A DNA stretch of 38,993 nucleotides from a virus (Duplodnaviria > Caudoviricetes), in the IMG/VR virus record IMGVR_UViG_3300025018_000285, positions 1 to 38,993 of that record; one strand, written 5' to 3'. Below the pieces are notes generated by a model, which ran no database searches, was not told the origin of the DNA, and saw only the letters and a list, made by a program, of their open reading frames with translations. Positions within the stretch are counted from its first letter, which is position 1. Each line of letters starts with the position of its first letter. A program made the position numbers and the translations under genes. Below, piece after piece: positions 3,322-35,129 of this stretch.

Positions 3322-3693
3322 TTGGAAAAAGAACCTTGGGGATACTCAACAAGAATAAAAATAACAGATTGTGATAAAGATTTGCTCACAGATATAGAGT
3401 ATTGTAAAAAATATTTGACAGACGTAGTGCGACATATAGATATGACTCCATTTGGTGATCCAATTGTAGTTCACTTTGGAAAAGATCCTAAAGTTTCCGG
3501 ACTATCTGGATTCCAGTTGCTTGAAGAAAGTAATATTGCTTTTCACTTTACAGATGGTGGAGAAACAGGTATGACTTTTGATGCTTATATAGATGTATTC
3601 TCATGTAAGCTATATGATAGTGATGAAGTAGCAAATTATTCTGCAACATACTTTGGTGGAAAAGTAGAGTACTCTAGATTCGAGGAAAGATAA
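3322..3693 (+). CDS. S-adenosylmethionine decarboxylase-like pyruvoyl proenzyme (ES-N variant)
   Basis: GLSGFQLLE-ESNIAFHF self-cleavage site, YIDVFSCK; GGAG RBS before a TTG start. Confidence 0.82.
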   Translation: MEKEPWGYSTRIKITDCDKDLLTDIEYCKKYLTDVVRHIDMTPFGDPIVVHFGKDPKVSGLSGFQLLEESNIAFHFTDGGETGMTFDAYIDVFSCKLYDSDEVANYSATYFGGKVEYSRFEER

Positions 3694-5588: not shown

Positions 5589-6744
5589 TTCCAATAAATT
5601 TACTTACAATCAAATCTCTAAGTTCCTTATCCATTATTGAATCCTTTAATATAATTTCAGTAAGAACTTTTTTAAAAGAAGTAAAAATAGTATCTTTAGA
5701 ACTATATACATAATCAGCATCAACACCATCTAATTTCTTTTTAATTTTATTTGTATATTTATTGATTTGTATTTTTTTTGCAGCGTACTCAGTTTCACTT
5801 AATTCTTTACTCAGTTTAACAAATAATTCATCAAGTCTTTTAAACTGGCTACCAGGAGAAAACTGATCTACAAGCATTTTAGTTACCGTCTTACGAATTA
5901 TAGCATCTTTATCGTATTCAGTACCTATTGAACCAAGAGTGGTTTTTAAATATTTTATTTTAGCATTATTTGACATCGTCTTCAGCATTATAAATCTCAC
6001 TGTAGTTCTTGAATTATAAAAAGCATAAAAATCTTTTTGAGTAGTCATCATAGAGGCCCAAACTGTTTTAGCATCTTCGGACGCATCTTTTCTAGATGCT
6101 ATTGCTTTTAATTTATATGCTACAGCTAAATAACATTTTTTTCCTATACCCATGCTTTTTAAAATTTCAGGTAATCCTAGTGGAAAGTGAACTCTATTAG
6201 CAGTCGTTTCGACTTCAAAATAAATACCATCCAATCTTTTTGAATCGAAAGAAGAAAGATTGAAAAACTTTTTTGCTTTTTTAAATAAATCATTTACAAA
6301 CTTTTCTTGTTTTGGGTCTGCATACTCTAATTTAAAACTTTTTTCTAATTCTACATTTGTAACATATTCAATTATCTCTATTCTTTTAGAATATTGGATA
6401 TCATTATTATCTTCTATAAGATTTTCATACAATTTTATAAACTTTTTAGGTAAAACTTTGTTTAAATCTAAAATAGCTTCCTCATCTCCTAAACTCACCG
6501 GAATTTTTTTAGGGTCGAGATTTTTTACAGCTAAAACTAAATCTTCTTTGATATCTTCCAAAGCTCCAAGAAATTCTTCTTGTAAAGCTTTAAAAACTAA
6601 ATCTTTTTTACCGTCTCTCTTGACTTCTTTGCCAGTGATTCGTTTAGCAAGTTTACCAGCTAATTTGCTATCGCTTTTTTTTGTAGCATGGTATAATTCA
6701 CCTGCTGGTATAGGAGCTTCAAAATAATCTCTAAACTTTTTCAC
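5557..6744 (-). CDS. Putative head-packaged protein with GNAT-like segment
   Basis: N-term MKKFRDYFE; internal LPEILKSMGIGKKCY...S.DAKTVW resembles GNAT acetyl-CoA motif A and the following helix. Confidence 0.55.
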   Translation of the reverse strand: MKKFRDYFEAPIPAGELYHATKKSDSKLAGKLAKRITGKEVKRDGKKDLVFKALQEEFLGALEDIKEDLVLAVKNLDPKKIPVSLGDEEAILDLNKVLPKKFIKLYENLIEDNNDIQYSKRIEIIEYVTNVELEKSFKLEYADPKQEKFVNDLFKKAKKFFNLSSFDSKRLDGIYFEVETTANRVHFPLGLPEILKSMGIGKKCYLAVAYKLKAIASRKDASEDAKTVWASMMTTQKDFYAFYNSRTTVRFIMLKTMSNNAKIKYLKTTLGSIGTEYDKDAIIRKTVTKMLVDQFSPGSQFKRLDELFVKLSKELSETEYAAKKIQINKYTNKIKKKLDGVDADYVYSSKDTIFTSFKKVLTEIILKDSIMDKELRDLIVSKFIGTKTETQSDKD

Positions 6745-8257
6745 TTTGCTTGAATCCTTTCAGATCACTCAATGCTTTTGTAAAAGTTCCTTTCTTAGGT
6801 TTAGCAGTTTGTACTGGAACTAAGCCTTGTTTTAGTTGTTCATATTGTGAATCAGTAATCCCGTTATCTTTTATGAATTGAAAAAAATCTGGATAGTCCT
6901 CTTGTGATATTGTAATGTTTCTTTTCGGATCACTTATTCTAATACTTGTCTTACCATCTTTAGCTTTAAGAAGAACATGAGTAAGTCTAATCATTGCAAG
7001 CCATCTTTTAGTAGCCTCAATAGTTACATATACATCATTCGATGCTGTATGCCAATCTAAGTTTTTAGCAATAGCACCAAGTTTACCAAGCGATACTGAA
7101 GATTTAGGGTTATCAAAAATCTTATTCCATTTTTTAGAATCAATACCAGATGTTTCTTTAATCTTTTCATAAAACTTTTTCAAAATTTGTTGTCTTTTTT
7201 TATCGCCTTTTACAAATTTTTTAAATACTTCTTGAGTATCCATAGAATCACCAAAAGTATCTTCGACTTTTTCTTTACCTTTTCTAGTAGTATAACCTTT
7301 AGTTCTTCTTTTTAATTCTGCTTTGATAGCCGTAAGAGATTTAGATTTCTTTTGATCGAATTTTTTAATGTTTCTAAAAATTTCAGCATTTCTATCTAGC
7401 AATTCACCAGTAACCATACCTTGATCGTAAGAAAGATTTTGAGCAACAACCACAACCTTTTTATCTTTATTATCTGATTTAACTTTTTTTACAAAACTTA
7501 TGAAAGCATCAACAATTTCACTTTCTGTTTTCTTTCTTTCTACTTTATAACCTTCACCAAGTTTTGATTTATCCCAACTCTCAATTCTTTTAAAGTCATC
7601 TTTTTTAGCTTTAGTCATATCCATAAGACCTTCAATTTCAAAAGAAGATTTCAGTAGATAAGCAATTTTATTAATATCTATTTGTTTTTTATTTGTGAGA
7701 ATTGTTGCTAAAGATTCTTTAAAACCTGGCATATTAAATTTAAAGCCATCTTTGTTTGCTTTATAGGCTTCTTTAATTTTCCCCATTTGAACAGTTGTAA
7801 TATCTGGATATTTTTTAGTGATATTGTTTTTTAATTTAGTCGGGTTTTTTTGATACTTTAATTTATCTAATTCCATTTTAAGATGGAGTGTCCCATCTGG
7901 TATAACTTTGAAATCGTTATCGTAAGCTGTGGCAGCTAACTCATATATTTGATCTCTCTCAGTTGTCATACCATTATCTTTTACAGAAGTTTTTTGAGTT
8001 AATCCTGTTGTTTCAGTATCAAAAACTACAAAAATAGTATCTGCATAATTATCTATTTTTGAGTCATTTGTAAAAGGATTTACATTATCTTTTACATATC
8101 CAAGAATATCTTGGATTCTTATTGACTTAGTTATTTGATTAAAAATACCATCAAATTGTTTCGATATTTTTTTCAAGTTACTAAATTTTTCTTTCGTCAT
8201 GCCTTCTGGCATCTTTAATTCATTATAAATTTTCAGGTAGGTTTCAAAATTGCTCAT
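6731..8257 (-). CDS. DEDDh 3'-5' exonuclease (DnaQ-like) with large insertions
   Basis: ExoI VVFDTETTGL, ExoII AQNLSYD, SMDT, ExoIII HTASNDV. Confidence 0.85.
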   Translation of the reverse strand: MSNFETYLKIYNELKMPEGMTKEKFSNLKKISKQFDGIFNQITKSIRIQDILGYVKDNVNPFTNDSKIDNYADTIFVVFDTETTGLTQKTSVKDNGMTTERDQIYELAATAYDNDFKVIPDGTLHLKMELDKLKYQKNPTKLKNNITKKYPDITTVQMGKIKEAYKANKDGFKFNMPGFKESLATILTNKKQIDINKIAYLLKSSFEIEGLMDMTKAKKDDFKRIESWDKSKLGEGYKVERKKTESEIVDAFISFVKKVKSDNKDKKVVVVAQNLSYDQGMVTGELLDRNAEIFRNIKKFDQKKSKSLTAIKAELKRRTKGYTTRKGKEKVEDTFGDSMDTQEVFKKFVKGDKKRQQILKKFYEKIKETSGIDSKKWNKIFDNPKSSVSLGKLGAIAKNLDWHTASNDVYVTIEATKRWLAMIRLTHVLLKAKDGKTSIRISDPKRNITISQEDYPDFFQFIKDNGITDSQYEQLKQGLVPVQTAKPKKGTFTKALSDLKGFKQSEKV

Positions 8258-8261
8258 AGAA

Positions 8262-8269
8262 TATATTTA
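8262..8269 (-). promoter_or_regulatory. Putative late promoter TAAATATA
   Basis: Reverse complement lies 4 nt before ATG 8257. Confidence 0.6.
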
Positions 8270-8355
8270 TGAAAAAACGTCAAATTTCATCAAAAATAAT
8301 TTTATTTAGAATTAAAAATACAAAAAACTATATAATAAGACATGGCCAAACATAT

Positions 8356-10020
8356 ATGTACAGACTCATGCGATCAGAAAAAACATTTTTATCTATTCAT
8401 AATCACTCTATATTCTCAGCAAGAGATTGTCTAAATCACATACCGGCTTTATATGATAAAGCTGCTGAGAATAATTTTGAAGTAGTAATTACAGATCATG
8501 GAAACATGGGATCTGTAGTTCAAGCATTTGAAGAGGCTAAAAAAAGAGGAAAGAAATTTATAGCAGGATGTGAATTTTATGTTTCTTCAAATAGAGATAG
8601 ATTTTTTGAAGTAAAAAATAGATTAGAAACTTTAAAAAAAATACCAGCTTCTAGTTATTCTAAAGGTGAGAAAGCTAAAGCAGATCAAGAAGTAAGATTA
8701 CTTAACTTTGAATTTGATGCATTGGGGAAGTATGGTCATTTAGTAGCTATTGCTAAAAACATTGATGGCTATCACGAGCTTCTAGAAATACATAATAAAG
8801 CATTTACAGATTACTTTTATAAAAAACCTCTAACTGATTATAAAGATTATTTTAAAACACAAAGAAATAAAGATGGAAGTAGAAATATTATTCTTACTTC
8901 AGCATGTCTAGCCAATCAAATTAATCAATTCATTATGAAGGATAAACTGGATAAAGCAGATGACTTTGTTCAGATGTTAAAAGAAGAATATCAAGATGAT
9001 TTTTATATTGAATTACAAGCGAATGATATGGACATTCAAAAAAAGTGTAATATAAATTTAATTAAGTTAGCCCGAAAACATGACATACAAATGTGTATAG
9101 CCAATGATGCCCATTACACTTCCATAGACGATTCAGAAGCTCATCAGATTCTCTTATTATTACAAGGTGGCAATAAGATTGAAGATAGAGATAAAATGGT
9201 TTGGCAGATTACATACGAAACAAAGAAAGGGGAAACTCGTAGAAAAAAAGTAGAAGATGAAGGTGACTTTTTTGGAATTCCTATAGAGTCTATACAAGTT
9301 GGCGATTATATTTATAAAAAAGACAAAGGTGATTTTAAAAAATACGATAAAGAAATAAAGAAAATGGAGAAAGTCCCAAAAGCTTGGGTTATCGAAGCAG
9401 AAAATTTAACATTTTGTACAGAAGATGAAATGATTGAGAAAACTAAAACTCATGAAGAGTTAAAAGATATAGTAGATGAATTGCTTGATACAAATAAAAA
9501 GATTTTAGAAAAGATAGAGAATTATGATTTAGATGTTTCTAATAAACTACCTAGATTTGAAAATGAAAATATAACACTCAAAAAACTTTGTGCAGAAAAA
9601 TTGATAAAAAGAAAGTTAAATAAAAAACCAGAATATGTAGCAAGACTTAAAAAAGAATTAAACATTATTACAACGGCTGGATTCTCTTCTTACTTTTTAA
9701 TACTTGAAGATATTTATAGATTTGTACATGAAAACAATAGACCTAGAGGAATCAGTAGAGGTTCAGCAGGTAGCAGTTTAGTTGCTTATTTGCTTAATAT
9801 TACTTTGATTGATCCTATAGAATATAATTTTCCATTTGAAAGATTTTTAAATTTAGAAAGAACTGGATTAGATTTGATTACAGTTGAAGCTGAAAATGGT
9901 ATGCGATTTAACTATCTTCAATCTCAACTTATAAAAGTTGAGAGAGATGGAAAAGAGATAGAAATTACAGCCGATAAACTTACAGAAGATGATACAATGA
10001 TTGTTGATAAAGTATTTTAA
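8356..10020 (+). CDS. dnaE: DNA polymerase III alpha (DnaE) N-terminal part: PHP plus start of palm, ending in a Hint-like extension; true start uncertain
   Basis: PHP motifs HNHS, TDHG, GCE, GHL, NDAHY; SYFLI, RGSAGSSLVAYLL.IT.IDP, FERFLNLER. Confidence 0.92.
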   Translation: MYRLMRSEKTFLSIHNHSIFSARDCLNHIPALYDKAAENNFEVVITDHGNMGSVVQAFEEAKKRGKKFIAGCEFYVSSNRDRFFEVKNRLETLKKIPASSYSKGEKAKADQEVRLLNFEFDALGKYGHLVAIAKNIDGYHELLEIHNKAFTDYFYKKPLTDYKDYFKTQRNKDGSRNIILTSACLANQINQFIMKDKLDKADDFVQMLKEEYQDDFYIELQANDMDIQKKCNINLIKLARKHDIQMCIANDAHYTSIDDSEAHQILLLLQGGNKIEDRDKMVWQITYETKKGETRRKKVEDEGDFFGIPIESIQVGDYIYKKDKGDFKKYDKEIKKMEKVPKAWVIEAENLTFCTEDEMIEKTKTHEELKDIVDELLDTNKKILEKIENYDLDVSNKLPRFENENITLKKLCAEKLIKRKLNKKPEYVARLKKELNIITTAGFSSYFLILEDIYRFVHENNRPRGISRGSAGSSLVAYLLNITLIDPIEYNFPFERFLNLERTGLDLITVEAENGMRFNYLQSQLIKVERDGKEIEITADKLTEDDTMIVDKVF

Positions 10021-10301
10021 AACTCACAGAACAACACATTTGAGTTTGTTAATGTTATTAAACCTTTAGGTTGTTTTTTTAATTTTTTTTGAAACTTAGA
10101 TATGTTGTTTGATAGTTTAGTGCGATATGTCTCGTATGATTTTTTAGTTAATTTTTTTTGCGTGTATTGAAAGTTGACTTGTCTAAAATTGCCTTCAACT
10201 ATATCTATAGAGTCTTTTACTTCTAAGTTTAAATTGATTTCCGGATCACCCGATAAAATCATAAAAAGTTCTAATCGTTCATTCTCTGTATTCTTTTTCA
10301 T
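10017..10301 (-). CDS. Hypothetical basic protein inserted antisense between the dnaE halves
   Basis: 94-aa ORF filling the gap; TATAAT 7 nt upstream of its ATG. Confidence 0.6.
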   Translation of the reverse strand: MKKNTENERLELFMILSGDPEINLNLEVKDSIDIVEGNFRQVNFQYTQKKLTKKSYETYRTKLSNNISKFQKKLKKQPKGLITLTNSNVLFCEF

Positions 10302-10361
10302 ATAGTATATTATATGAATAAATGTTAGAAAATACTTTTTTTTTTAGATACAATAAATTAT

Positions 10362-12449
10362 ATGAAATTGAAAGTAAAAAAAATAACTATTGAAAAATCT
10401 GTAGCAAGCCCTCCCGATATTGATGGTGACTTTTTTAATAGAGAAGAAATTGTAAAATATCTTATAAAAAAATATGGACAAAATCACGTAGCAATGGTTG
10501 GAACTGTAACTAAATATTCACCTAAAAATGCGATACAAGATATAGCTACAGTGTTTTCAATTCCTCCTTCCGAATCAACGGCAATCACCAAGGTTTACAA
10601 TTCAGAATTATCTATTGAAGAAAACATGGTCAACGTACCTAGTATAAAAGCATTCTTTAAAAAATATCCAATGGTAAAAGATTTAATTCCAAAATTTATA
10701 GATACTATACGAGGCTTTGGTATTCATGCTGGAGGAGTTGTTCTTACAGATGTTAAGTATCCTATGAATAAATTCTTTGCACTTCAAAGAACTCAAGAAG
10801 ATAGTAAGATTGCTACTTTTTGGGCCAAAGAAGAAGTAGAAAGAATGGGCGGGATCAAGATGGATATTCTTGGTTTAAATTGTTGCGGTCAAATTCACTA
10901 TGTTAAAAACTTAGTTGGTTTGGATCCATATGAAATACATCCACTACAAGATGAAGTTTTTAGAAAAATTGTACTTACAAATAAACATAAAAACATTTTT
11001 CAATTTGATTCAAACATTGGTGGTATGGCTTTTAGTGAAATTAAGCCAATGAATCTTGAAGATTTATCTGCGGCTTCTGGTATCATTCGAGTATTAGGAA
11101 CAGATGAAGGTAGAAAAGCATTTGAAATGTTTAAAGAAAATATTTCTGAGTTTCAAACTAATGGTACAGATATTACTAAACTAAAAATAAAAAGCGAAGT
11201 TGTTGATCCTTATAATAGAATTGTATGTGAGAAAGTTTTGAAAAATACTTATGGTGTTTTAGTTTATCAAGAACAACTTATAAATCTTGTTATATATCTT
11301 TCAAAAGGTAAAAGAACATTTCAAGAGGGAAGTAATCTTAGAAAAGCATTAGAAAAAAAGATTTTCGATAAGTATGGAACTATTGATAAATTGCAAGGTA
11401 ACAAAGAGGCTCTTAAAAAATGGCATACTGATATTATGGCTTTATTTGAAGTAAATCTTTTGCCATTTATTGGTAAAGATGGATGGGATTCAAAAGATCA
11501 AACTATTCAAGATTTTTTAAACTTTAGATTAGACGAAGATAATAGACTACCAATTCCAGATAAAGGTATTTTAAACTGGTTCATTGTTTCTAGTGCTTAT
11601 TTGTTCTCTATTATTCACTCTAAAGCATATTCACTTATGGGTTATGAACAGATGTATCAAAAATATTATTATCCAAAACAATTTTGGTTATCTGCTTTGA
11701 TACATGCGAAGAAAGAACAAGTAAACGAATATATATTGGCAGCTAGAAGTGAAAGCAAAATAAAATTTCTTGCACCCTCCTATAAAGATTCAAGTGCTAG
11801 TTTCACCATGGAAAAAGATAATATCCGATATGGATTATCTTTTGTTAAAGGATGTGATAAAGCCGCAGATGATATAGAACTAGAAAGAGAGAATAGTGGT
11901 CAATTTAAAGATTTAAAAGATTTTTGTTCTAGAATGTATTTATATGTTTCTATGAAGAAAAACGTATGGGAGAATCTTTTATTTGCTGGTGCATTCTTTG
12001 AAAAACCGGTTCGTGACGAAGAAGGGATTTTTGACTATAAATATTTGAAAGATATTATAAAAGTAATTGATACTGAGACTGATGCTAAGTTGGCTTATGC
12101 TCTCGATGAATCAGAAGATTCTTTTGCAAAAAAAGAATTTGATATGTTGAATACAAATATTACTTTTGTTCACCCTCTGCTACAAGATGCTCATTTATAT
12201 AATCCATTAGATTCTATTACAGAAGGTATGACTGGTAGATGTATGCTGAAAGTTGAATCCACAAAAGAAAAGAAAAGTAAAAATGGTAATATGTACAAAC
12301 ATTTAAAGGTTACCTGTATGAATTCATTTGAGACTACTTTTATTTTCTGTTTTGATTTGACAATAAATTTTAAAAAAGGAGAAATTTACATACTACCAAT
12401 TAAGAATAATAACGGATTTATTTCTGTAGATATTTATAATAAAAGATAA
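10362..12449 (+). CDS. dnaE: DNA polymerase III alpha (DnaE) C-terminal part
   Basis: SPPDIDGDF (two catalytic Asp), GIHAGGVV, KMDILGL (third Asp), TYGVLVYQEQ, HSKAY, IRYGLSFVKG, OB-fold end. TACAAT 7 nt upstream of its ATG. Confidence 0.93.
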   Translation: MKLKVKKITIEKSVASPPDIDGDFFNREEIVKYLIKKYGQNHVAMVGTVTKYSPKNAIQDIATVFSIPPSESTAITKVYNSELSIEENMVNVPSIKAFFKKYPMVKDLIPKFIDTIRGFGIHAGGVVLTDVKYPMNKFFALQRTQEDSKIATFWAKEEVERMGGIKMDILGLNCCGQIHYVKNLVGLDPYEIHPLQDEVFRKIVLTNKHKNIFQFDSNIGGMAFSEIKPMNLEDLSAASGIIRVLGTDEGRKAFEMFKENISEFQTNGTDITKLKIKSEVVDPYNRIVCEKVLKNTYGVLVYQEQLINLVIYLSKGKRTFQEGSNLRKALEKKIFDKYGTIDKLQGNKEALKKWHTDIMALFEVNLLPFIGKDGWDSKDQTIQDFLNFRLDEDNRLPIPDKGILNWFIVSSAYLFSIIHSKAYSLMGYEQMYQKYYYPKQFWLSALIHAKKEQVNEYILAARSESKIKFLAPSYKDSSASFTMEKDNIRYGLSFVKGCDKAADDIELERENSGQFKDLKDFCSRMYLYVSMKKNVWENLLFAGAFFEKPVRDEEGIFDYKYLKDIIKVIDTETDAKLAYALDESEDSFAKKEFDMLNTNITFVHPLLQDAHLYNPLDSITEGMTGRCMLKVESTKEKKSKNGNMYKHLKVTCMNSFETTFIFCFDLTINFKKGEIYILPIKNNNGFISVDIYNKR

Positions 12450-12454
12450 ATATA
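12447..12454 (+). promoter_or_regulatory. Putative late promoter TAAATATA
   Basis: 6 nt before ATG 12461. Confidence 0.55.
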
Positions 12455-12460
12455 TGGTAT

Positions 12461-13264
12461 ATGAGAAACTTTGAATATTATTACGAAAAAACTAAACAAA
12501 TTAAAAAGCCAATTAAAAAAAGATCAGCTGTACATGAATTGGTTTTTTCTGAAAAAGCTGGATTGAAAATAATATTAAAATATCTAGATAAGAGGCAGAA
12601 TTTAGAAAACTTTGATGGTCTTATGGTTTTTATTAGAAAGTTTTTTGTTTTTATGAAAAAGATGACTGGTAAATATCCACAGTTTGATGAAATCTATATA
12701 GCTGAAAATAGAGTGTTGTCAAAATTAAATGTAAAAGGTTATAATAAATCTGGTAACTGGATTACTCTTAATGACTTCAAAAAAATAAACTATTGGACTC
12801 TTTTTCATGAAATGATTCACATATACAATGTCGATACCTACACAGGATTCATTGCTGAAGGGTTGGCAGACTTTCTATCGTACTTATTTATTTCTAGTAG
12901 TAATTTTGCCGCCGCACAGAGCCAAGTCAAAGGGGAGTTAGCACAAATAACTTCTGCTTTCTCGAAGATCAAAAATGATTATCCTCTATATGATTCTATG
13001 AAAAAAGACTACAATAAAAATGTAGATATAGGCGCAGATAGTAGTCAAACTTATGCAAAGTCATTTTTATTTTGGAAGATGATACATGACAAGTTAGGCT
13101 TAGAACCAGTAAAAGAAGCCTTCCGAAAATCACTTAAAAACAAAAAACTCAATGCTGTGAACGTAAAGAATATAATCAAAAAATATACAAAAGAGCCTAT
13201 GAATTATATGAAAGGTTGGATTGTAAACGGCGAATATCAAATTTTTCCAGAATTAAAATTATAA
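12461..13264 (+). CDS. Gluzincin (clan MA, M1-like) zinc metallopeptidase
   Basis: HEMIH, then AEGLADF (third ligand) and YAKS..FW.M (M1-like Tyr); N-term MRNFEYYYE. Confidence 0.75.
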   Translation: MRNFEYYYEKTKQIKKPIKKRSAVHELVFSEKAGLKIILKYLDKRQNLENFDGLMVFIRKFFVFMKKMTGKYPQFDEIYIAENRVLSKLNVKGYNKSGNWITLNDFKKINYWTLFHEMIHIYNVDTYTGFIAEGLADFLSYLFISSSNFAAAQSQVKGELAQITSAFSKIKNDYPLYDSMKKDYNKNVDIGADSSQTYAKSFLFWKMIHDKLGLEPVKEAFRKSLKNKKLNAVNVKNIIKKYTKEPMNYMKGWIVNGEYQIFPELKL

Positions 13265-13303: not shown

Positions 13304-13840
13304 ATGTCGTTTCTACAAGACTTTAAAAAATTAAATGAAGATGCAGATTTTCGACCAAGTGGATTGGCTGAAAATCATTTAAGAGGCAGAATAAACCCTC
13401 TTGAATCTATTAAAAAAATCCCTGATCCTTCAAGAGAAGAGAATATAGGTGAAAAAGTTGATATAACATCTAAGATGCAAAAAAAATATAGAATAGCTTT
13501 GAAACCTATAGTAAAAAAATTCTTAGATAATATAAGTAAGTATAGAAATGATAGTAAAGATTTTGATATTAATAAATTAAATAGTGAAACATTTCCTATT
13601 TATTTTGTAAAAGACTATAAAACTAATGGTGCAGAAACTCCTAGTACAATACCTATTAGAAAAGAATCGCCACAGATTCTCACTATATATGGTCCAGTTG
13701 TATCTAAGACTATTGTAGATTTTAATAAAATAGAAGTTGATAAAAGTAAATTAGAAATTAAAGAAAAAAAGATTATTATAGGTCATGGTGGATTGAACAG
13801 TGGAACTTTCAAATTAGAAGTATTGGTAGTTATAGAATGA
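13304..13840 (+). CDS. Hypothetical protein, putative head-targeted
   Basis: TAAATATA at 13282-13289, AGAGGA RBS, N-term MSFLQDFKKLNE. Confidence 0.7.
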   Translation: MSFLQDFKKLNEDADFRPSGLAENHLRGRINPLESIKKIPDPSREENIGEKVDITSKMQKKYRIALKPIVKKFLDNISKYRNDSKDFDINKLNSETFPIYFVKDYKTNGAETPSTIPIRKESPQILTIYGPVVSKTIVDFNKIEVDKSKLEIKEKKIIIGHGGLNSGTFKLEVLVVIE

Positions 13841-15189
13841 AAAAGTTTGTAGAAGAAATAAAAAGCTATGAAGAAAAAGCACATGAATATATTGTGTCTC
13901 CATCAACAGCTCTAAGATATAAAAACAATACAAAACAAAAATTTAGAGATGCACTAGATTATCATCTTAGAAATATAAAAGGTGTTACGGCTGTACCTGA
14001 AAAAGTATTGAGACAGATTGAATACGAAGTTTTAAAATCTAAACCTATTGAGATAGATTTAGATAGCGATACTGTGAAGATGATTATCTCACAACACATT
14101 CACAAGTTAAAGACTATAGAAAAAAAAAAATTTAACGAAGACTTAGATATTTCTGAAGTAAAAGTTAATATGAAAAATCAAGAAAAGATTAAACCCGTCA
14201 ATTATCATGGCTTTTCTACAGACATTTCTAGTTATAAAAATAAAACGAAATTATATATAAAAACTCAAAGAACAAATGATACAGAAGATTTCTATGGTTC
14301 TATTTCAAATATTTTAAATGAATATATTGGCTTTGCTATTTTAAAAGATATCTCTACAGTATTCAAAGGTATAAAAGTACCAAAAATAAATAAAATATCT
14401 TATGAGATTCAAAAAGAAGAAATACAAGAAATGTTAAATGCTGACGAAGTTAATTTTTCTAATCCTGATATGTTTATTAACAGTTCAATCTCTATGCAGT
14501 ACATTGTTTCGAGTTTTAAAGCCAAAGCTAAGACACTTGAAAGAGCGTCTAAAGAATTAAAGGTTGCTCAGATGTTTCATATGTTTATAAACTATGCATT
14601 ACCTAATATTCTTGTAGGTAATCAAGATGCTCACTCTGGTAACTTTATTACTAAAATGAATAAGAGGTTTGTAAAAGATTATTATATCATTGACCTCGGC
14701 AATGCTTTTGAAAAAACAAATGCTTTTAGTCTAGATGCTTTGAAAAAATTCTTTTTCATGGAAAAGAAAGCTGATAAGAACTCTAGAAAATTAAACAATC
14801 AAGAAAAAGATGTCGTTAAACTTGATATGAGAAGACTTGTAGAAAAAAAAGATAACTATGCCATGAAAGTAATAGAAGTTTTTAATAAACAAAGTCAATA
14901 TCTTTTAAATAAAGATTTTAGTCCAATAGTAGATAAACAAATAGATTCTTTTACTATTATGTACAAAAAAGCTTATAGAGATTTTATTACAACAGTAGAT
15001 AATCTACAGGAAGATCAATATTTTGCAGACGGTTTTGAAAAACAAGAATTAATGAAAAATATAGAATCAGGGTTGGAAGATAGATTAAGTGAAATAAATT
15101 TTATACGAAAAAAATATAAAGATATATTAAAGCACAATAAGCTTTCAGTTAAAAGAGTAGTTGAATACTTGAATGGATTATTAAATTGA
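13837..15189 (+). CDS. HipA/PI3K-like atypical kinase, paralog 1
   Basis: YIK, NEYIG, VP, catalytic loop GNQDAHSGN, Mg loop IIDLGNAF. Confidence 0.75.
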   Translation: MKKFVEEIKSYEEKAHEYIVSPSTALRYKNNTKQKFRDALDYHLRNIKGVTAVPEKVLRQIEYEVLKSKPIEIDLDSDTVKMIISQHIHKLKTIEKKKFNEDLDISEVKVNMKNQEKIKPVNYHGFSTDISSYKNKTKLYIKTQRTNDTEDFYGSISNILNEYIGFAILKDISTVFKGIKVPKINKISYEIQKEEIQEMLNADEVNFSNPDMFINSSISMQYIVSSFKAKAKTLERASKELKVAQMFHMFINYALPNILVGNQDAHSGNFITKMNKRFVKDYYIIDLGNAFEKTNAFSLDALKKFFFMEKKADKNSRKLNNQEKDVVKLDMRRLVEKKDNYAMKVIEVFNKQSQYLLNKDFSPIVDKQIDSFTIMYKKAYRDFITTVDNLQEDQYFADGFEKQELMKNIESGLEDRLSEINFIRKKYKDILKHNKLSVKRVVEYLNGLLN

Positions 15190-16238
15190 ATAAATCATTT
15201 ATAAAAGAAATACGAGAATATTCTGAAAGAGTAAGGATGGAAAACTCTAAAAAGATCAAAGACGTTGATTATGAGGGTTATTCGACTGATATCATATCTT
15301 ATAAAAATAAGAAAAAATTATTTATCAAGACTCAGAGAAATGATGAAGGTAATAGTTTTATCGCTACAGTAGAACCTATTTTGAATGAATATGTTGGATT
15401 TGCTATTCTCAAGGATATGGCTACAGTATTTAAAGGTATCAAAACACCACAGGCAACAAAAATTTCTTATGAAGTAGATGATGAAATTATTGCATATAAA
15501 CTAGAAGGTTCTAAATATTCTGGTGATGAATTAACTGCTATATTAAATGAACATATTAAGATGGAATTCATTACTTCTAGTTTTAAAGTTAAAGGTAAAA
15601 CACTTGATAAAGGTTCAAGAAAAATGAAATTTATTGAGATTTTGAATATGTTGGCAAACTATGCTTTTCCAAATATTCTTATAGGAAACCATGATGCTCA
15701 TTCAAAAAACTATATTGTAAAACTAAGTAAAAAAGCTATTAAACAATATTACATTATTGATCTTGGAAATGCCTTTCAAGATGCTTATGTTCAATCATTG
15801 GACGGTTTGAAGCATAATTTGTTTTATGGAACTGACCCTAAATTAAAAACTCAAGATGAAAAAGATTTTTATAATAATAACTACCTAGATGAACTATTTG
15901 ATGAAAACAATCCATACCTTCAACAATTAATCAAAAGATTTCAGAAACAATCAGAATATATTAATAGTAAAGACTTTAGTTCTATAATAGATAGACAAGT
16001 AAATCTATTTATTCAAATGTACAAGAAAGCATTTATTGAATTTTTAAAAGCTGTAGATATTGTAGATTCTTTGGATAATCCAACAAAAGTACAAGAATTT
16101 TTAAAACAAGAATTAGAAGATAGAATAAAAAGTCTAAAAGAAATGAAAAAAGAATACAAAAATATTATAATAGATAATAAAAAAGTATTAAAAAAGATTA
16201 TGGATTTTTTTAATAAAAATTTAGAAGGAAACAAGTAG
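15186..16238 (+). CDS. HipA/PI3K-like atypical kinase, paralog 2
   Basis: FIK, NEYVG, GNHDAHSKN, IIDLGNAF; colinear with the C-terminal ~340 aa of the upstream paralog. Confidence 0.75.
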   Translation: MNKSFIKEIREYSERVRMENSKKIKDVDYEGYSTDIISYKNKKKLFIKTQRNDEGNSFIATVEPILNEYVGFAILKDMATVFKGIKTPQATKISYEVDDEIIAYKLEGSKYSGDELTAILNEHIKMEFITSSFKVKGKTLDKGSRKMKFIEILNMLANYAFPNILIGNHDAHSKNYIVKLSKKAIKQYYIIDLGNAFQDAYVQSLDGLKHNLFYGTDPKLKTQDEKDFYNNNYLDELFDENNPYLQQLIKRFQKQSEYINSKDFSSIIDRQVNLFIQMYKKAFIEFLKAVDIVDSLDNPTKVQEFLKQELEDRIKSLKEMKKEYKNIIIDNKKVLKKIMDFFNKNLEGNK

Positions 16239-26955: not shown

Positions 26956-27405
26956 ATGAAAAACAAATATTTTAATGACTATCCTATGAACACAAGTGTA
27001 GAAATGGAATCATTACTTCCAGCTAGATTACTCGAAACTTTAGAAGAATTTGATAGAGTAATAAGCCCAACTCCATTTGTATCAACAAAAGCAAACTTTC
27101 CAAAAATAAATATCAAAAGAAAAGAAGATGTTTATACTGTAGAAGTTGGTTTGGCCGGCTACAAAAGAGAAGAAATCACTGCTGTTATAGAGGGTAGAAA
27201 TTTAATCATCTCTCACAAAAAGTCAGACGATGTAAAAGAAGAAGAATACTTTATTAAAGAAATGACTAAAGGTTCATTCAAAAGAATTATCAATATTCCT
27301 AATTTTATTAATTTGGAAAATATTGAATCGGAATTTCAAAATGGTGTTCTAAAAATTACAATGTATGTAGCAGAAGCATCTAAACCAAAAATCTTAAAAT
27401 TCTAG
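26956..27405 (+). CDS. Small heat-shock protein (Hsp20); start revised from 26908
   Basis: FPKINI, VEVGLAGY..EEI, GSFKR, F.NGVLKI; GAGGT RBS before ATG 26956. Confidence 0.9.
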   Translation: MKNKYFNDYPMNTSVEMESLLPARLLETLEEFDRVISPTPFVSTKANFPKINIKRKEDVYTVEVGLAGYKREEITAVIEGRNLIISHKKSDDVKEEEYFIKEMTKGSFKRIINIPNFINLENIESEFQNGVLKITMYVAEASKPKILKF

Positions 27406-29186
27406 TTTTTGTTTTGAACAGGGATGCCATATCCCTGTTCAATTAAAAATCTACTCTCCTCTGTAAGTTCAATGTGATTAGCCCCTCCACCAAAAAGAAA
27501 GTGTTTGGCCCTTGTAACATCATCATTCTCTTTTACAGCTTCTAGTTCCTCTATCTCTTGTTTTAATTTATTTTCAGAAAAGAAAAACACTTCAGATAAA
27601 AATATAAATTCAGCAAGAGCCATTGTTAAATCATCATTAGCCCCTTCAAGTGCTTCTACCCGACCTCTAGCATTATAACCAAAATTTCTAAGTTCATTTA
27701 AAGTTCTAATACTTTTAATTTTTACTCGTTTCTCTTCATCATACATAGTTTTTTCAAATACACCAAGAACATTACCTCTGTTAGTACCCATAGGAAATCC
27801 TTCTACATACTTATGTTTAGATATTTTATGAAAGTAAAATGTTTCTGGATGTGACTTTCCAAATTCTTGGCATAATGTAACCCCAAGTCCAGTTCTTTCT
27901 ATACAAAATTTTGCATTGTTATAGTAAGCTACGACTTCTTTTAAAATATCTCTTAATACAGGAGTACTTACTTTACCTTTAAATTCCGCAACTTGTTCCA
28001 TAGTATCAAGATCAATAACATGAAATCCCGAATAATCCGTAGATCCTCCCGAAGAAACGTCGGCACAGACACCATAATAATGACCTGGGAATGGATCATG
28101 CCAAACCCAAAAACCTTTACAATATCCGATTGATTGTTCAAAATCATCATTTATATCTGCAAAATTATCGAAATCTATTGGAACACCATATTCATCTACT
28201 TGAGTTTGTCTTATGAAATCACATCTTTTAGGATTTTCTACTGTTATTGAATTCAATATATCCGTAGAGAGAAAAGCATTTTCCATTTGACTATGAATGA
28301 TACCTCTAATCTCTATATCGTATTTTCTTTGGCCCAAAGTCTCTAATTGTTCTGCGTGCCATTGGGGGTCTTGATAAAACGGAATATCATCTGTTTCTAT
28401 TTCTATAAGGCAATATTGAGATTCTTTAGGTTCTTCTTTTGCTTTATTAAAGATTCTCATATATTCATTATCAACTGTACCTGATTCCGGTAATGTAGAA
28501 ATAATAAATAATTGTGATGGTTGTGTTTTATCTGTGAATGGAGCTTTAGAACCAGGCCCTAAAGACGGTGCAGACCCTCCCAGGAGCTTACCAGCCGTTC
28601 TTTTTGGATAAAAGGCATACTCATCTAGTACAATCATAGAAGGTGTACCAGATCGAGAACCTTTCTCTGTATTTGGTTTACTTTTTATACTAGAACCATT
28701 TACAAAGTGTATTGTACTTTTATTTTTCTCTTGTGTTTCACTTTTAAGCCACACTGGTAGATTATCATACATAAATTCCATTTTTTCAAGATATTCATTA
28801 GCTTCATCTTGGCCCAAAGAAAATACATTTATTGTTTGCCCTTCAAAAAAAAGACTTCTCCACAAATCATGTGATTGTTTCAAGGTTGAGCATCCAGTTT
28901 GTCTTGTTTTAAAAAATATAAAATATCGTGCCATGAGAAATTTGATTGCCGCTTTTTTTTGCCACTTATAAGTGTTCGTTACAGCAGGAATAGGAATACC
29001 TATTGGTGATTTAAAAAATACATAAGTAAGAAGAAAATATAAAAAACCCGTAGGCATAGCAATACATCTTTCAACTTCTTTTTTAGCTTGTTGTATGCTA
29101 GGTGAGTTTAAATCTATCTTATCTGGATTTGGTACTACACCGAATGCTAATTTTTCTATTTCTTTTTCGCTTAATTGTAAGATCAT
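27402..29186 (-). CDS. terL: Terminase large subunit (T4 gp17-like)
   Basis: Q motif YKWQ, KTRQTGCST, VLDEYAF, IIST, nuclease ADVSSG...DYS, IERTG.G, NDDLTMA. Confidence 0.92.
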   Translation of the reverse strand: MILQLSEKEIEKLAFGVVPNPDKIDLNSPSIQQAKKEVERCIAMPTGFLYFLLTYVFFKSPIGIPIPAVTNTYKWQKKAAIKFLMARYFIFFKTRQTGCSTLKQSHDLWRSLFFEGQTINVFSLGQDEANEYLEKMEFMYDNLPVWLKSETQEKNKSTIHFVNGSSIKSKPNTEKGSRSGTPSMIVLDEYAFYPKRTAGKLLGGSAPSLGPGSKAPFTDKTQPSQLFIISTLPESGTVDNEYMRIFNKAKEEPKESQYCLIEIETDDIPFYQDPQWHAEQLETLGQRKYDIEIRGIIHSQMENAFLSTDILNSITVENPKRCDFIRQTQVDEYGVPIDFDNFADINDDFEQSIGYCKGFWVWHDPFPGHYYGVCADVSSGGSTDYSGFHVIDLDTMEQVAEFKGKVSTPVLRDILKEVVAYYNNAKFCIERTGLGVTLCQEFGKSHPETFYFHKISKHKYVEGFPMGTNRGNVLGVFEKTMYDEEKRVKIKSIRTLNELRNFGYNARGRVEALEGANDDLTMALAEFIFLSEVFFFSENKLKQEIEELEAVKENDDVTRAKHFLFGGGANHIELTEESRFLIEQGYGIPVQNKN

Positions 29187-29257
29187 ATAGATTATATTTG
29201 AGAATTTCTATCATTTTTTATTAAATATAATTGGATACTATAATCTAAGGTGAAAAA

Positions 29258-31345
29258 ATGAATGATAATAAACAATTTTGGAATGATGTAAATAAAATAT
29301 TACAAAAAGATATATTTGATCCTGAGATTCTAGGCTCTTTAAATTCCAAAAATACTAAAAAAAGCAATCAGCAAGCCGAGACTGTTTTAGAATTAGATGA
29401 TGAAAAAAATAAAAAATTTGCTGAATTACTTAGATCAATCAATTCAAGCACCAATGATAAAAATAGCAGATATGACAGAATAGATAAAATTCTTCTTAAT
29501 CCCGAAATAGATGGCTCAATGAATATCTATGCCGACGAAGCAACTACACAGAATGAACATGGAGAAGTTATCAATTTAATTTCAGCAGATGAAAAAGTTG
29601 TAGAAATAGTTCAAAACTTATTTGAAAGAATAGGTGTCCCAGATAAATCGTGGAGCATAATTAAACATATGTGTTCTTATGGAGATAGATTTGATGAGAT
29701 AATTTATCAAGCCGATGGTAAAGGTATTCATTCTTTAAGAGAATTGAATAAAAGATTAGTTTTTAGAGAAGAAGAAAATAATATTTTAAAAAGTTTTTAT
29801 ATTTCAAAAGAAGGTGCCAACAAAGATGATGGTTCTCAAATACAAATGTTTCACTACGATTCACAAGAGAGTGATAAAAAATTAAGAATTTTACCTTATA
29901 GGATTTTACATTGGAGATTAGATAATACAAAATACAATCCTTATGGTCAAGCAATTGTAGACTCGGTAATGTCTGCAATCGAAGAATTAAAGTTATTACA
30001 ACAGTCAGTAATTCTTGCTAGAGTATCAAGAGCGCCAGAAAGAAGAATCTATAGAATCAATGTTGGTCAACAAACTGGTCAAGGTGCTATTCAAGCCGCA
30101 AAATTAATTATAGAAAATTTCAAGAAAAAAAGAGTTGTAGATATTACAAACAATACTACAATCAATAGAGAAGTAGATGTTTTAACTGGTTCTGAAGAAA
30201 TTGTTATTCCTTATAGACAAGGTGAAGAAGCTCATACTATTGATACTCTTCCACAACTTCAAAATTCAGGGGTAGAAGATTTAGAGTTTTTTAGAAGTAG
30301 AATTTTTCCTGGTCTTGGTATTCCAAGGGCTTATTTATTTGATGATACTTTTGCTAACTCAAATACCAACCTTTCAAATAAATCACTTCCATTCGCAAAA
30401 AGAATTCAAAGAGTTCAAAGATATTTTATTCAAGGTTTGTATAAATTAGCTATTATTGAATTACAATTGAAAGGTATAAAATCTAAGAGATATGAAGACC
30501 TTACAATTACAATGAATAACCCATCTAACTTGATGGAAATTCAAAGATTAGATATAGCTACACAAAGATGGAATTTAATTCAATCTATCAAAGCAAATAA
30601 CACAGAAATTGTAATGGTGCCAGATTATTGGATTTACAAAAATATTCTTAATCTTTCAAATGAAGAAGTACTTGAAATGCTGTTGCTTGGAGCCGCACAA
30701 AAGAATAATAAAAACATATTTGATTACCTTCCAGAAGATCAAAGACCTCTAGGATTTGAACAGTTAGATGAATTTTTAAGTATTGCTCCTAACGGAGAAG
30801 AAGGAGATACAAGTGGTGTTCCAGGTGGTGGTGATCTTGGTAGTGACGGCGGAGATGATGATACGGCAGCGGCGGAACTTGATGCGGCGGCGGCAGAAGG
30901 GGGATTTGAAGAACCACAAACTACAGATACCGAGACTCCGGATGCTGAGACTGATACAAATGCAGAGACTGATACAAATGCAGAGACTCCAGAGTTAGCT
31001 TCAACAACTATAAAGATAAAAAAAGGTACTGCTATTTATACAGAAGAATTAAAAAAACAAGCAGAAATGAGAAAGAAAGAATATTTAGAAAAACAAAAAG
31101 AAATGCAAGAGGCGGAGCAGGCTGTAAGACAATTGTTTTATGAAAAAGAAGAGTTGAAGAAAAATGTTTCTAAGAGAACTAAGATATTTTTTAATCTAGA
31201 ATATTTTGAAAATCAAAATGAATTTATTGGTTTAAACAAAGTAAACCCAAAACTTAAATACAGTTATTATGGTGAAGATACTATTTTTATTCCAAATAAA
31301 CAGATTACAAAGAAAAAAAAGACCTTGACAAAAAAGAAAAAATAG
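29258..31345 (+). CDS. Portal protein (T4 gp20-like) with long acidic C-terminal extension
   Basis: PEIDG...IYADE, ILARVSRAPERRIY.I.VG, IDTLP, EDLEFF...L.IP..YL, FAK.I.R.Q; TAAATATA at 29222-29229. Confidence 0.92.
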   Translation: MNDNKQFWNDVNKILQKDIFDPEILGSLNSKNTKKSNQQAETVLELDDEKNKKFAELLRSINSSTNDKNSRYDRIDKILLNPEIDGSMNIYADEATTQNEHGEVINLISADEKVVEIVQNLFERIGVPDKSWSIIKHMCSYGDRFDEIIYQADGKGIHSLRELNKRLVFREEENNILKSFYISKEGANKDDGSQIQMFHYDSQESDKKLRILPYRILHWRLDNTKYNPYGQAIVDSVMSAIEELKLLQQSVILARVSRAPERRIYRINVGQQTGQGAIQAAKLIIENFKKKRVVDITNNTTINREVDVLTGSEEIVIPYRQGEEAHTIDTLPQLQNSGVEDLEFFRSRIFPGLGIPRAYLFDDTFANSNTNLSNKSLPFAKRIQRVQRYFIQGLYKLAIIELQLKGIKSKRYEDLTITMNNPSNLMEIQRLDIATQRWNLIQSIKANNTEIVMVPDYWIYKNILNLSNEEVLEMLLLGAAQKNNKNIFDYLPEDQRPLGFEQLDEFLSIAPNGEEGDTSGVPGGGDLGSDGGDDDTAAAELDAAAAEGGFEEPQTTDTETPDAETDTNAETDTNAETPELASTTIKIKKGTAIYTEELKKQAEMRKKEYLEKQKEMQEAEQAVRQLFYEKEELKKNVSKRTKIFFNLEYFENQNEFIGLNKVNPKLKYSYYGEDTIFIPNKQITKKKKTLTKKKK
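30947..30988 (+). repeat. 18-nt in-frame tandem repeat GAGACTGATACAAATGCA (2.3 copies)
   Basis: Visible; encodes ETDTNA repeats in the portal tail. Confidence 0.85.
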
Positions 31346-33880: not shown

Positions 33881-34267
33881 ATGATGACAAATAGTGGAAC
33901 ACATATTATACTTGATCTCGAATGGTGCGATAATGAACTAGCACTTGAGACTTTTTACTTCCGTAGAGAACTTTTAAATATTATAAAAGATAATGGAATG
34001 AATCCTCTCGAAGTAGTACAGAAAAATTTTAAAGAAAAATTTTGGCATCTTAAAGGTTATAGTTATACTGCTTTAATTTTACTAGAAGAGTCTCATGTGT
34101 CTATACACACCTTTCCTTTGGAATCAGAGAATAAAAAAGTTGCTATTGATATTTATACTTGTAATTACACTAGAGATAATAAAGAAGGAACTGAAAATAT
34201 AGCTTCTTATTTCATTGAGTTATTTAAAGCTAGTAGTATTAAGAATCACTTAATGCTCTCAAGATAA
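33881..34267 (+). CDS. speD: S-adenosylmethionine decarboxylase proenzyme (class 1b)
   Basis: GTHIILDL..CD, LLE-ESHVSIHTFP, IDIYTC. Confidence 0.88.
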   Translation: MMTNSGTHIILDLEWCDNELALETFYFRRELLNIIKDNGMNPLEVVQKNFKEKFWHLKGYSYTALILLEESHVSIHTFPLESENKKVAIDIYTCNYTRDNKEGTENIASYFIELFKASSIKNHLMLSR

Positions 34268-34442: not shown

Positions 34443-34472
34443 TTGACAAAAAGTACTATTTTGTTGTATAAT
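34443..34472 (+). promoter_or_regulatory. Sigma70-type promoter, likely leaderless transcript
   Basis: TTGACA-18-TATAAT, 6 nt before ATG 34479. Confidence 0.8.
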
Positions 34473-34478
34473 AGATAC

Positions 34479-35129
34479 ATGAAATTGATTAATAAAAAAA
34501 CATACAAAGAAACACCTAAGTTAATTGAAACAATCCATACTTGGGAAGCAAAAAGACAAGATAAGAGAAATATAAAAGATCACGCAGTATTTCAGTCTAT
34601 TTTGATTGTAGCTCTAATACTTGCTGGTATGATTTGTGGCAGAATATTAAACGATTCGGTTACTCGAAATCCAGCAGAACATAAACTAATACAAGATATT
34701 CCTGTAAGTGAAGAAAGATACATTCAACCAGATGTTGATTATTTTATTGAAAAGAAAGCAATGAAATATCAAGTAGATGCAATACTTGTTAAAAGTATTA
34801 TTCAACATGAAAGCAGACATTATAAGTTTGCAAAAGGTTCTGCTGATGATGTTGGTGTTATGCAAGTAAGACTTATAAATATGAATAAGAAAGAATTAGC
34901 CGAACCATTTGAATATGATAATAATGTTGATGCAGGTGTTAGATATTTGAAGGGATGTATTGAAAAACATTCTAAATTAGATAAATCTATTTCTTGTTAT
35001 AACATGGGATTAAATGGAAATTACAATTCAAAATATGTAAAACAAGTCTGTACAAATTATTTGTACTATGCTAAAATGTATAATAAACAGACAAACAAAA
35101 ATTTTAAAGAGTGTGAAAAACAGATATGA
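34479..35129 (+). CDS. Membrane-anchored SLT lytic transglycosylase; start revised from 34443
   Basis: TM helix, IIQHES (catalytic Glu), GVMQV, NVDAGVRYL, YNMG. Confidence 0.85.
   Translation: MKLINKKTYKETPKLIETIHTWEAKRQDKRNIKDHAVFQSILIVALILAGMICGRILNDSVTRNPAEHKLIQDIPVSEERYIQPDVDYFIEKKAMKYQVDAILVKSIIQHESRHYKFAKGSADDVGVMQVRLINMNKKELAEPFEYDNNVDAGVRYLKGCIEKHSKLDKSISCYNMGLNGNYNSKYVKQVCTNYLYYAKMYNKQTNKNFKECEKQI

Follow-up and report, generated by a model that had tools for sequence, protein, structure and literature searches.

The DNA considered here, referred to below as the window, is a 38,993-nt stretch (IMG/VR record IMGVR_UViG_3300025018_000285) that is part of a large tailed phage genome, known as a single contig; a second polymerase may lie elsewhere in that genome. 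Genes for a T4-like portal, a terminase-like protein, a primase, a DnaB helicase and a sigma factor were recognized in it with Pfam, and the metagenome runs containing it are mostly from aquifers and cold springs. The dnaE gene of the window occurs as two separate genes, and the two ends at the point of division carry short extensions that resemble parts of an intein. The features of the split gene are as follows.

8269..10020, plus strand: N-terminal half of dnaE (gene 1), 583 aa, comprising the PHP domain and the beginning of the palm; it has the R-G-S motif and residues equivalent to E. coli R390 and R396 (Pfam PHP and DNA_pol3_alpha, alignment to 2hnh)
9862..10017, plus strand: acidic tail of 52 aa, net charge -6, corresponding to the second lobe of an N-intein and lacking Cys1 and TxxH (hhalign, Atlas structure matches, charge)
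9916-9927, plus strand: LQSQ at the TxxH position (profile alignment)
10362..12449, plus strand: C-terminal half of dnaE (gene 2), 695 aa, with D19 and D21 (E. coli D401 and D403), D168 of a KMDILG motif, the fingers and HhH (Pfam, alignment to 2hpi and 2hnh)
10362..10406, plus strand: basic head of 15 aa, net charge +4, corresponding to the first beta-strand of a C-intein and lacking block F and His-Asn (comparison with loci L061 and L063, heads of 13 relatives)

Gene 1 closes with FERFLNLER followed by the tail (T532-F583), while gene 2 opens with the head and continues with SPPDIDGDF. When aligned to E. coli DnaE (2hnh), gene 1 extends through V397/S398 and gene 2 picks up at V397/S398, so that no part of DnaE is missing. 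In fact, the PHP, NTPase/palm, finger and HhH domains are all found across the two genes (Pfam), and the catalytic aspartates, the R-G-S motif and the R390 equivalent are all present in the alignments to 2hnh and 2hpi. D168 of gene 2 is presumably the third catalytic aspartate. In published work, the incoming nucleotide is contacted by R362, G363, S364 and R390, and Mg is bound by D401 and D403 (PMC4374717; here and below, papers are cited for the parts of their text that were accessible). Since the nucleotide-binding residues lie on chain 1 and the metal-binding aspartates on chain 2, any active site would need both chains. A preliminary description, made from the letters of the window alone, had placed the split within the active-site motif, and the gene coordinates and the 2hnh alignment agree with it.

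Judged by sequence, the tail and head descend from a split intein at this motif. A tail profile matches intact N-inteins from the same motif with a probability of 98.4% (hhalign; E 8.8e-15, 46 columns), with LQSQ aligned on TxxH and the matched part being the second half of the intact N-inteins, as the preliminary description had proposed. The Atlas model of the tail likewise matches intein-domain structures (TM 0.69-0.78). Intact elements occur at this DnaE motif in other loci; among these, L033 has a mini-intein in cis, and in L061, L063 and L081 a gene separates the two halves of a split intein. The C-inteins of L061 and L063 open with a basic strand that resembles the head and end HN|SPPD, with the extein start found in gene 2; the suggestion that the head looks like the start of a C-intein was therefore also sound. 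Homology of the tail and head to the Hint fold covers the middle half only. All seven of the intact inteins scanned have a match to a Hint or intein model of Pfam, for the most part under the curated cut-off. The intact inteins of L033, L061, L063, L064, L081 and L091 occupy three neighbouring positions inside one short DnaE motif. The split-intein site of cyanobacterial DnaE is a different one, which we take to lie far downstream.

The tail is by no means confined to the window. A profile built from five tails and a DnaE anchor retrieved 174 clusters at E up to 0.001, the best 150 of which were examined. Among 154 proteins classed (149 search matches and the five seeds, excluding P0004, the window's own variant), 111 end in the tail, 12 end in an N-intein with Cys1, one is fused in cis (P0088), 7 are ordinary DnaE, 21 are without the anchor and 2 are unclassifiable. 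The comparison of fused with split homologues that the preliminary description had suggested thus comes out at 111 split against 1 fused. The median tail length is 62 aa from the FERF motif, and the pattern is maintained across all 111 diverse proteins. On viral contigs, 39 distinct remnant loci have a downstream C-half, and the head was located in 36 of these (a few of them cut at an internal Met), including L059, the twin of the window. The distance between the halves ranges from -11 to 3451 nt in relatives, and the tail and head persist regardless; no split without such extensions was seen at this site among the loci examined. P0080, a 129-aa middle piece of DnaE, has a true C-intein at its start and a dead tail at its end, and by its sequence would represent a DnaE in three or more pieces, combining splicing and a clasp.

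A tree of 206 extein stretches (FastTree, 124 columns), which is poorly resolved, places the window inside a 13-row clade consisting entirely of remnants (support 95), apart from a 91-row, mostly remnant clade (support 99). The tail is found in at least three DnaE lineages, and the starred branches of the tree require at least three changes of state, between whose origins by repeated gain or by loss the tree does not separate. P0088 lies among the split forms, which would fit a re-fusion, at a fork that the tree leaves open. Other searches added little. No longer, fused protein bearing the tail came up in a word-index search, which is weak evidence since the profile search later gave P0088. 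No match to the tail was found in annotated phage genomes (tblastn), where the whole of gene 1 matched ordinary DnaE only, and a scan of prokaryote genomes with the clade alignment gave no match.

The residues needed for splicing are absent both in the window and across the relatives, as the preliminary description had noted for the window itself. There is no block A; the tail junction reads R-T-G (R-L-G, R-M-G or R-A-G in relatives), and the first lobe is entirely gone. Cys occurs near the junction in 3/111 tails, and T/S-x-x-H occurs anywhere in only 3/111, as opposed to 12/12 intact inteins. The head of gene 2 ends V-A, with neither block F nor His-Asn, both of which are kept in L061, L063 and L081, and Asn/Gln followed by Ser/Cys/Thr was seen at the end of none of the 36 located remnant heads. 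The +1 position is Ser16 in gene 2, Glu in five close relatives, and Ser or Thr in 21 of the 36. To our knowledge, all known intein classes require a terminal Asn/Gln plus a +1 nucleophile. With Cys1, TxxH, block F and His-Asn all gone, splicing is ruled out by known chemistry, and the window's element, as read from its sequence, is not a split intein, the three defining features tested all being absent. A separate third piece that would provide the missing lobe can also be rejected, since both residue 1 and the terminal Asn have to be linked to the exteins.

The gap between the two genes holds three further features.

10017..10301, minus strand: open reading frame (ORF) of 94 aa that fills the 341-nt gap, its stop overlapping the stop of gene 1 (codon score, strand skew)
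10309..10314, minus strand: TATAAT, putative -10 box, 7 nt before the ATG of the antisense ORF
10349..10354, plus strand: TACAAT, putative -10 box, 7 nt before the ATG of gene 2, divergent from the preceding box (consensus match only)

The antisense ORF, which was overlooked when the split itself was correctly described, is probably a real gene. Its in-frame codon score exceeds those of 500/500 shuffles and of the five other frames and is below those of 7 control stretches, and its strand skew resembles that of minus-strand genes. It has no Pfam or PHROG match, forms a singleton cluster and has no relative among 62 gap ORFs. In relatives, domains of the GIY-YIG or HNH type were found in five of the 20 gap ORFs scanned, from the remnant loci L046, L053, L142 (two) and L210, and other gap ORFs encode helicases, a methylase, ThyX and nucleotidases. 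As for the boxes, TACAAT does stand before gene 2, where it had been taken as the gene's own -10 box. Promoters were not in excess in a generic scan (3 versus 4.9 expected), but TA[T/C]AAT, a motif picked after inspection, lies 4-8 nt upstream of 5/37 other first ATGs versus 15/1234 other ATGs (p=1.8e-4), in all five cases as TATAAT. Because of this enrichment, a leaderless-type promoter belonging to gene 2 is plausible, as are, from sequence, two divergent promoters of this type in 10302-10361. The starts preceded by TATAAT at 4-8 nt are 4223, 18776, 29186 (minus strand), 31361 and the first ATG of 34443-35129. A Shine-Dalgarno-like word was found at only 10 of the starts examined, and the starts with TATAAT suggest leaderless phage transcripts. 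The runs containing the window include no RNA run, and RNA run X24 gave no match to it; neither result bears on expression.

The best view of the module's shape comes from P0088, a one-chain DnaE of 1222 aa (4 full-length cluster members) in which tail and head are joined in cis. Its 72-aa fused module was modelled with a pLDDT of 89.6, with long first and last strands. By VIA, the top 27 rows are all Hint domains (best Z 7.8, rmsd 6.3, 72 aligned), while the best non-Hint match has a Z of 3.7; the match to gp41-1 (Z 7.7, rmsd 3.4, 68 aligned) covers residues 36-110 of 127, the middle of the Hint domain. The Foldseek ranking agrees. The retained part corresponds to the N2 lobe plus the first C-strand of an intein, and the window's tail and head are predicted to form a compact half-Hint, as in the P0088 model. 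In Npu DnaE, association is driven by opposite charges, which lie on N2 and on the C-fragment (PMC11923092); here, 101/111 tails are acidic, and in a first set all 14 heads are basic. When the window's tail was co-folded with residues 1-30 of gene 2, the score was 0.39, versus 0.02 for the best control, with a contact agreement of at least 91% between runs and a partner pLDDT of at least 57. The mark applied was reached by 116/157 solved and 2/215 mismatched pairs, and at scores up to 0.60 by 18/157 and both of the mismatches. The co-folding thus lends weak support to binding in the window. Of the checks that had been proposed for a Hint-like fold in the extensions, hhalign, the Atlas matches and the P0088 fold search were positive, and the co-folding gave this weak signal.

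The module also seems to occur in uncut form. One candidate lies within gene 1 itself.

9193..9378, plus strand: 62-aa insert in the PHP domain (residues 309-370), a probable second, uncut half-Hint module

This insert was found in 11 proteins of the window's clade and also in L142 and L144. Its model (pLDDT 75) has the strand order of the half-Hint, and by VIA the top 7 rows are inteins (Z 4.9-5.9, with 4.3 for the best non-Hint), led by residues 45-119 of 6riy (Z 5.9, rmsd 2.1, 54 aligned). The top Foldseek row is instead NusG domain II, the Atlas search gave no Hint match, and a fold search among viral models gave no match at E up to 0.001. The profile match is weak, with an hhalign probability of 10-55% and a score (18.6) above those of 40/40 shuffles. 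A viral scan with the insert's alignment returned none, so that no split or intein-bearing allele of the site has been seen. On balance, these models make a second, uncut half-Hint somewhat the better reading of the insert. In P0095, a fragment of a family A polymerase (PolA), residues 50-120 are apparently another uncut half-Hint insert (E 1.1e-4); this protein carries a separate, true N-intein at its end. Tails without Cys or TxxH also end the family B (PolB) fragments P0112 and P0166 and, at another site, the DnaE piece P0142, and one occurs on P0153, of an unassigned 111-aa gut-type protein family. Scanning viral sequences with the PolB pair yielded only two PolB genes, both unsplit, and hence the partner heads of P0112 and P0166 have not been seen.

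Taken together, the window encodes a two-gene DnaE whose cut ends carry the middle half of a split intein, stripped of its splicing residues. It is likely that these ends fold into a single small beta-domain, which would serve as a non-covalent clasp keeping the two chains side by side. The preliminary description had proposed much the same, namely a domesticated intein. Its intein origin, loss of residues and two-chain enzyme all hold up, while the clasping function is deduced and the co-folding in its favour is weak. It was also incomplete, since it overlooked the copies in family A and B polymerases and the uncut modules of P0088, P0095 and, probably, the window's own PHP domain. As for how the arrangement might have arisen, dnaE would have been fractured by a split intein whose two halves flanked an endonuclease gene. 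The outer, catalytic half would then have been lost from each piece by deletion, so that the lobe responsible for the initial capture of the partner strand remained, and the gap would later have been filled by other genes. In the enzyme, the basic strand of the head would insert into the acidic lobe of the tail and thereby close the R396-to-D401 loop of the composite active site.

Several observations weigh against this account. The intact inteins were fetched by the tail profile itself, which inflates their likeness to the tail. All fold Z-scores are below 8 and no Foldseek E reached 0.001, so the fold argument leans on the uniform ranking and on sequence homology. Opposite net charges are seen in only 18/36 pairs of the larger set, the long heads of gut phages often being neutral or acidic, and the co-folding score may reflect likeness to solved split inteins. 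The window's gap gene is not recognisable as a homing endonuclease, and no deletion intermediate occurs among the forms found. Finally, the uncut copies sit in single chains where a clasp is needless, and thus the module may serve another purpose.

This last point is the basis of the strongest alternative, in which the half-Hint is a free-standing accessory domain with a job of its own, such as binding DNA or a partner, that was inserted in cis and later cut at a surface loop, with clasping as a side effect. Clearly, the uncut modules of P0088, P0095 and probably the PHP insert fit such a history, as do the tails on the PolB fragments and at the other DnaE site of P0142. Arg559 and Asp575, conserved at 90% or more among 88 rows, could also speak for a separate function, but both are invariant in the intact inteins as well and therefore look structural. 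Against this alternative, intact inteins occur at the same motif with a common extein start, and at this site 111 split forms stand against one fused form whose position in the tree would fit re-fusion. An accessory domain of this kind is accordingly rated as unlikely.

Less likely still is that the extensions are dispensable relics and that the DnaE halves assemble through their own palm interface. The two halves of a one-chain DnaE do share a large native interface. Moreover, the accessible text on the jumbo-phage minimal split Pol III mentions no such tags (PMC7824862). Relics would hardly be expected to keep their length and pattern in 111 proteins and at least three DnaE lineages, however, or never to be missing from a split at this site among the loci examined, and the codon use of the window's tail is gene-like.

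It is very improbable that the halves are joined covalently, whether by an unusual kind of protein splicing, by RNA splicing or by ribosome bypassing. Gene 2 does have Ser at the +1 position of the intact alleles, and stop and start codons overlap in some relatives. Against protein splicing stand the 36 heads without a terminal Asn/Gln and nucleophile and the Glu at +1 in close relatives. An Rfam search over 8000-13000 at E up to 1 gave no match, and thus no support for an intron. In addition to the antisense gene in the window's gap, relatives have blocks of several genes, up to 3.4 kb, between the halves. In the nearest relatives with context, L142 and L144, 3451 nt and 1313 nt of other genes intervene, and so two separately made proteins fit the data and RNA splicing or bypassing does not.

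A misassembly or a dead pseudogene can largely be dismissed, since the gap is bridged in other assemblies, the catalytic motifs are intact and the split is common to the 13-row clade. Single contigs cross the whole dnaE gap without differences in runs X3 and X4, as well as in X1 and X2, from which the window itself may derive; X5 and X6 cover the gap only in pieces, and X14 has no coverage of it. No joints were seen in any of the 8 metagenome runs mapped to the window, and the L059 assembly, 99.95% identical to the window over 13,753 nt, has the identical split. The misassembly of the gap that the preliminary description had named as a risk did not materialize. It had, on the other hand, read the split correctly and missed a local slip near the start of gene 1, the one feature that could be said to favour a faulty assembly. 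Behind 8375, L059, X2 and X3 have 4 nt that the window lacks. With these, gene 1 begins at ATG 8342, 5 nt after a TATAAT, as in relatives, and P0004-P0007 start at the later start corresponding to 8342. The true start is probably this ATG, and the listed start at 8269 is probably the product of an assembly slip in the window.

The arrangement has parallels among known split genes. Among the closest are the fractured genes (Dassa et al. 2009), in which a split intein is combined with a free-standing endonuclease gene (three DnaE loci are included) and oppositely charged strands form the interface (PMC2677866). There, too, a phage-like replication gene is broken in two, one ORF ending and the other beginning with a piece of intein and an endonuclease gene frequently lying in between, and L061, L063 and L081 are loci of this type at the present motif. 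The inteins of the fractured genes differ in keeping all six motifs and five catalytic residues (PMC2677866), whereas the window has the middle half only, no catalytic residue and an orphan gap gene. Thus, the host gene does lie in two ORFs at an intein site, while splicing-competent halves are lacking; the 94-aa ORF has no family match, and GIY-YIG or HNH domains are seen in L046, L053, L142 and L210 instead. We infer that the window's arrangement descends from the fractured-gene arrangement. The DnaE-1 to -3 loci of PMC2677866 may include this site, as intact inteins.

A second parallel is the Aeh1 ribonucleotide reductase set NrdA-a/mobE/NrdA-b, where terminal tails are essential for non-covalent assembly and a degenerate intein has been raised as their possible origin (Crona et al. 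2011, PMC3045599). As in the window, an essential enzyme is split through its active site and has tails added at the termini, and the alignments to 2hnh and 2hpi show the active site divided in the same manner between two tailed chains. By this analogy, the clasp likely works as the Aeh1 NrdA tails do. The Aeh1 tails are unique sequences, and the word 'Hint' is absent from the main text of PMC3045599; here, intein ancestry is shown and there is a conserved family of more than 100 clusters in DnaE, PolA and PolB. The cyanobacterial split DnaE inteins (Ssp, Npu) are alike in splitting dnaE and in having an acidic N2 lobe that binds a basic C-fragment (PMC11923092), but they splice into one chain, while the window's remnants lack the residues to do so. 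Group 2.2 jumbo phages have a minimal split Pol III alpha with NTP-binding and Mg-binding parts, and so a catalytic core in two proteins, as here (PMC7824862). That enzyme is minimal, without PHP, stands beside a family B polymerase and has no Hint remnant described in the accessible text, whereas the window's enzyme is full size. Literature searches, whose coverage excluded most subscription journals, found no description of the module, and the accessible parts of PMC8008677, PMC5526547 and bioRxiv 10.1101/2025.01.02.630785 contain nothing on it.

Other genes of the window deserve brief mention. Divergent from dnaE lies a gene for a 508-aa DnaQ-like exonuclease (6731-8257, minus strand; Pfam RNase_T at the edge of the cut-off; PHROG 192, polymerase exonuclease subunit), a possible proofreading partner of DnaE. 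There are two separate S-adenosylmethionine decarboxylase genes, at 3322-3693 and 33881-34267 (Pfam). Two adjacent uncharacterised proteins at 13837-16238 have kinase-like D-x-H-x-x-N and D-L-G motifs, with a weak HipA_C match on the second, and at 27402-31345 the terminase-like gene (minus strand) is divergent from the T4-like portal gene.

It is conceivable, though at present doubtful, that one Hint lobe forms a domain family of its own in phage DNA polymerases (families A, B and C), portable and non-catalytic and occurring both cut and uncut, with one of each in this DnaE and possibly a job beyond clasping. The Hint fold is thought to derive from duplication of one subdomain (PMC7664689), and natural single lobes are of interest for that reason. 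If real, such a family would amount to a naturally occurring, stably folded form of the half-unit thought to have given rise to the two-lobed fold, and would provide a ready-made heterodimerisation tag of 52+15 aa.

For intein biology, the clasp would represent a new end state of the intein life cycle, in which the chemistry is lost, docking is kept and the host gene remains permanently in two pieces. For the Aeh1 tails, Crona et al. could go no further than to suggest a degenerate intein; the clasp would be an instance of that idea in which the intein ancestry is clear. With short peptides, one could test if the capture lobe of a split intein suffices by itself as a binding pair and if a single Hint lobe folds alone. 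A small, orthogonal protein tag would also be on offer. For the phages themselves, it would account for the many dnaE genes that look truncated in annotation.

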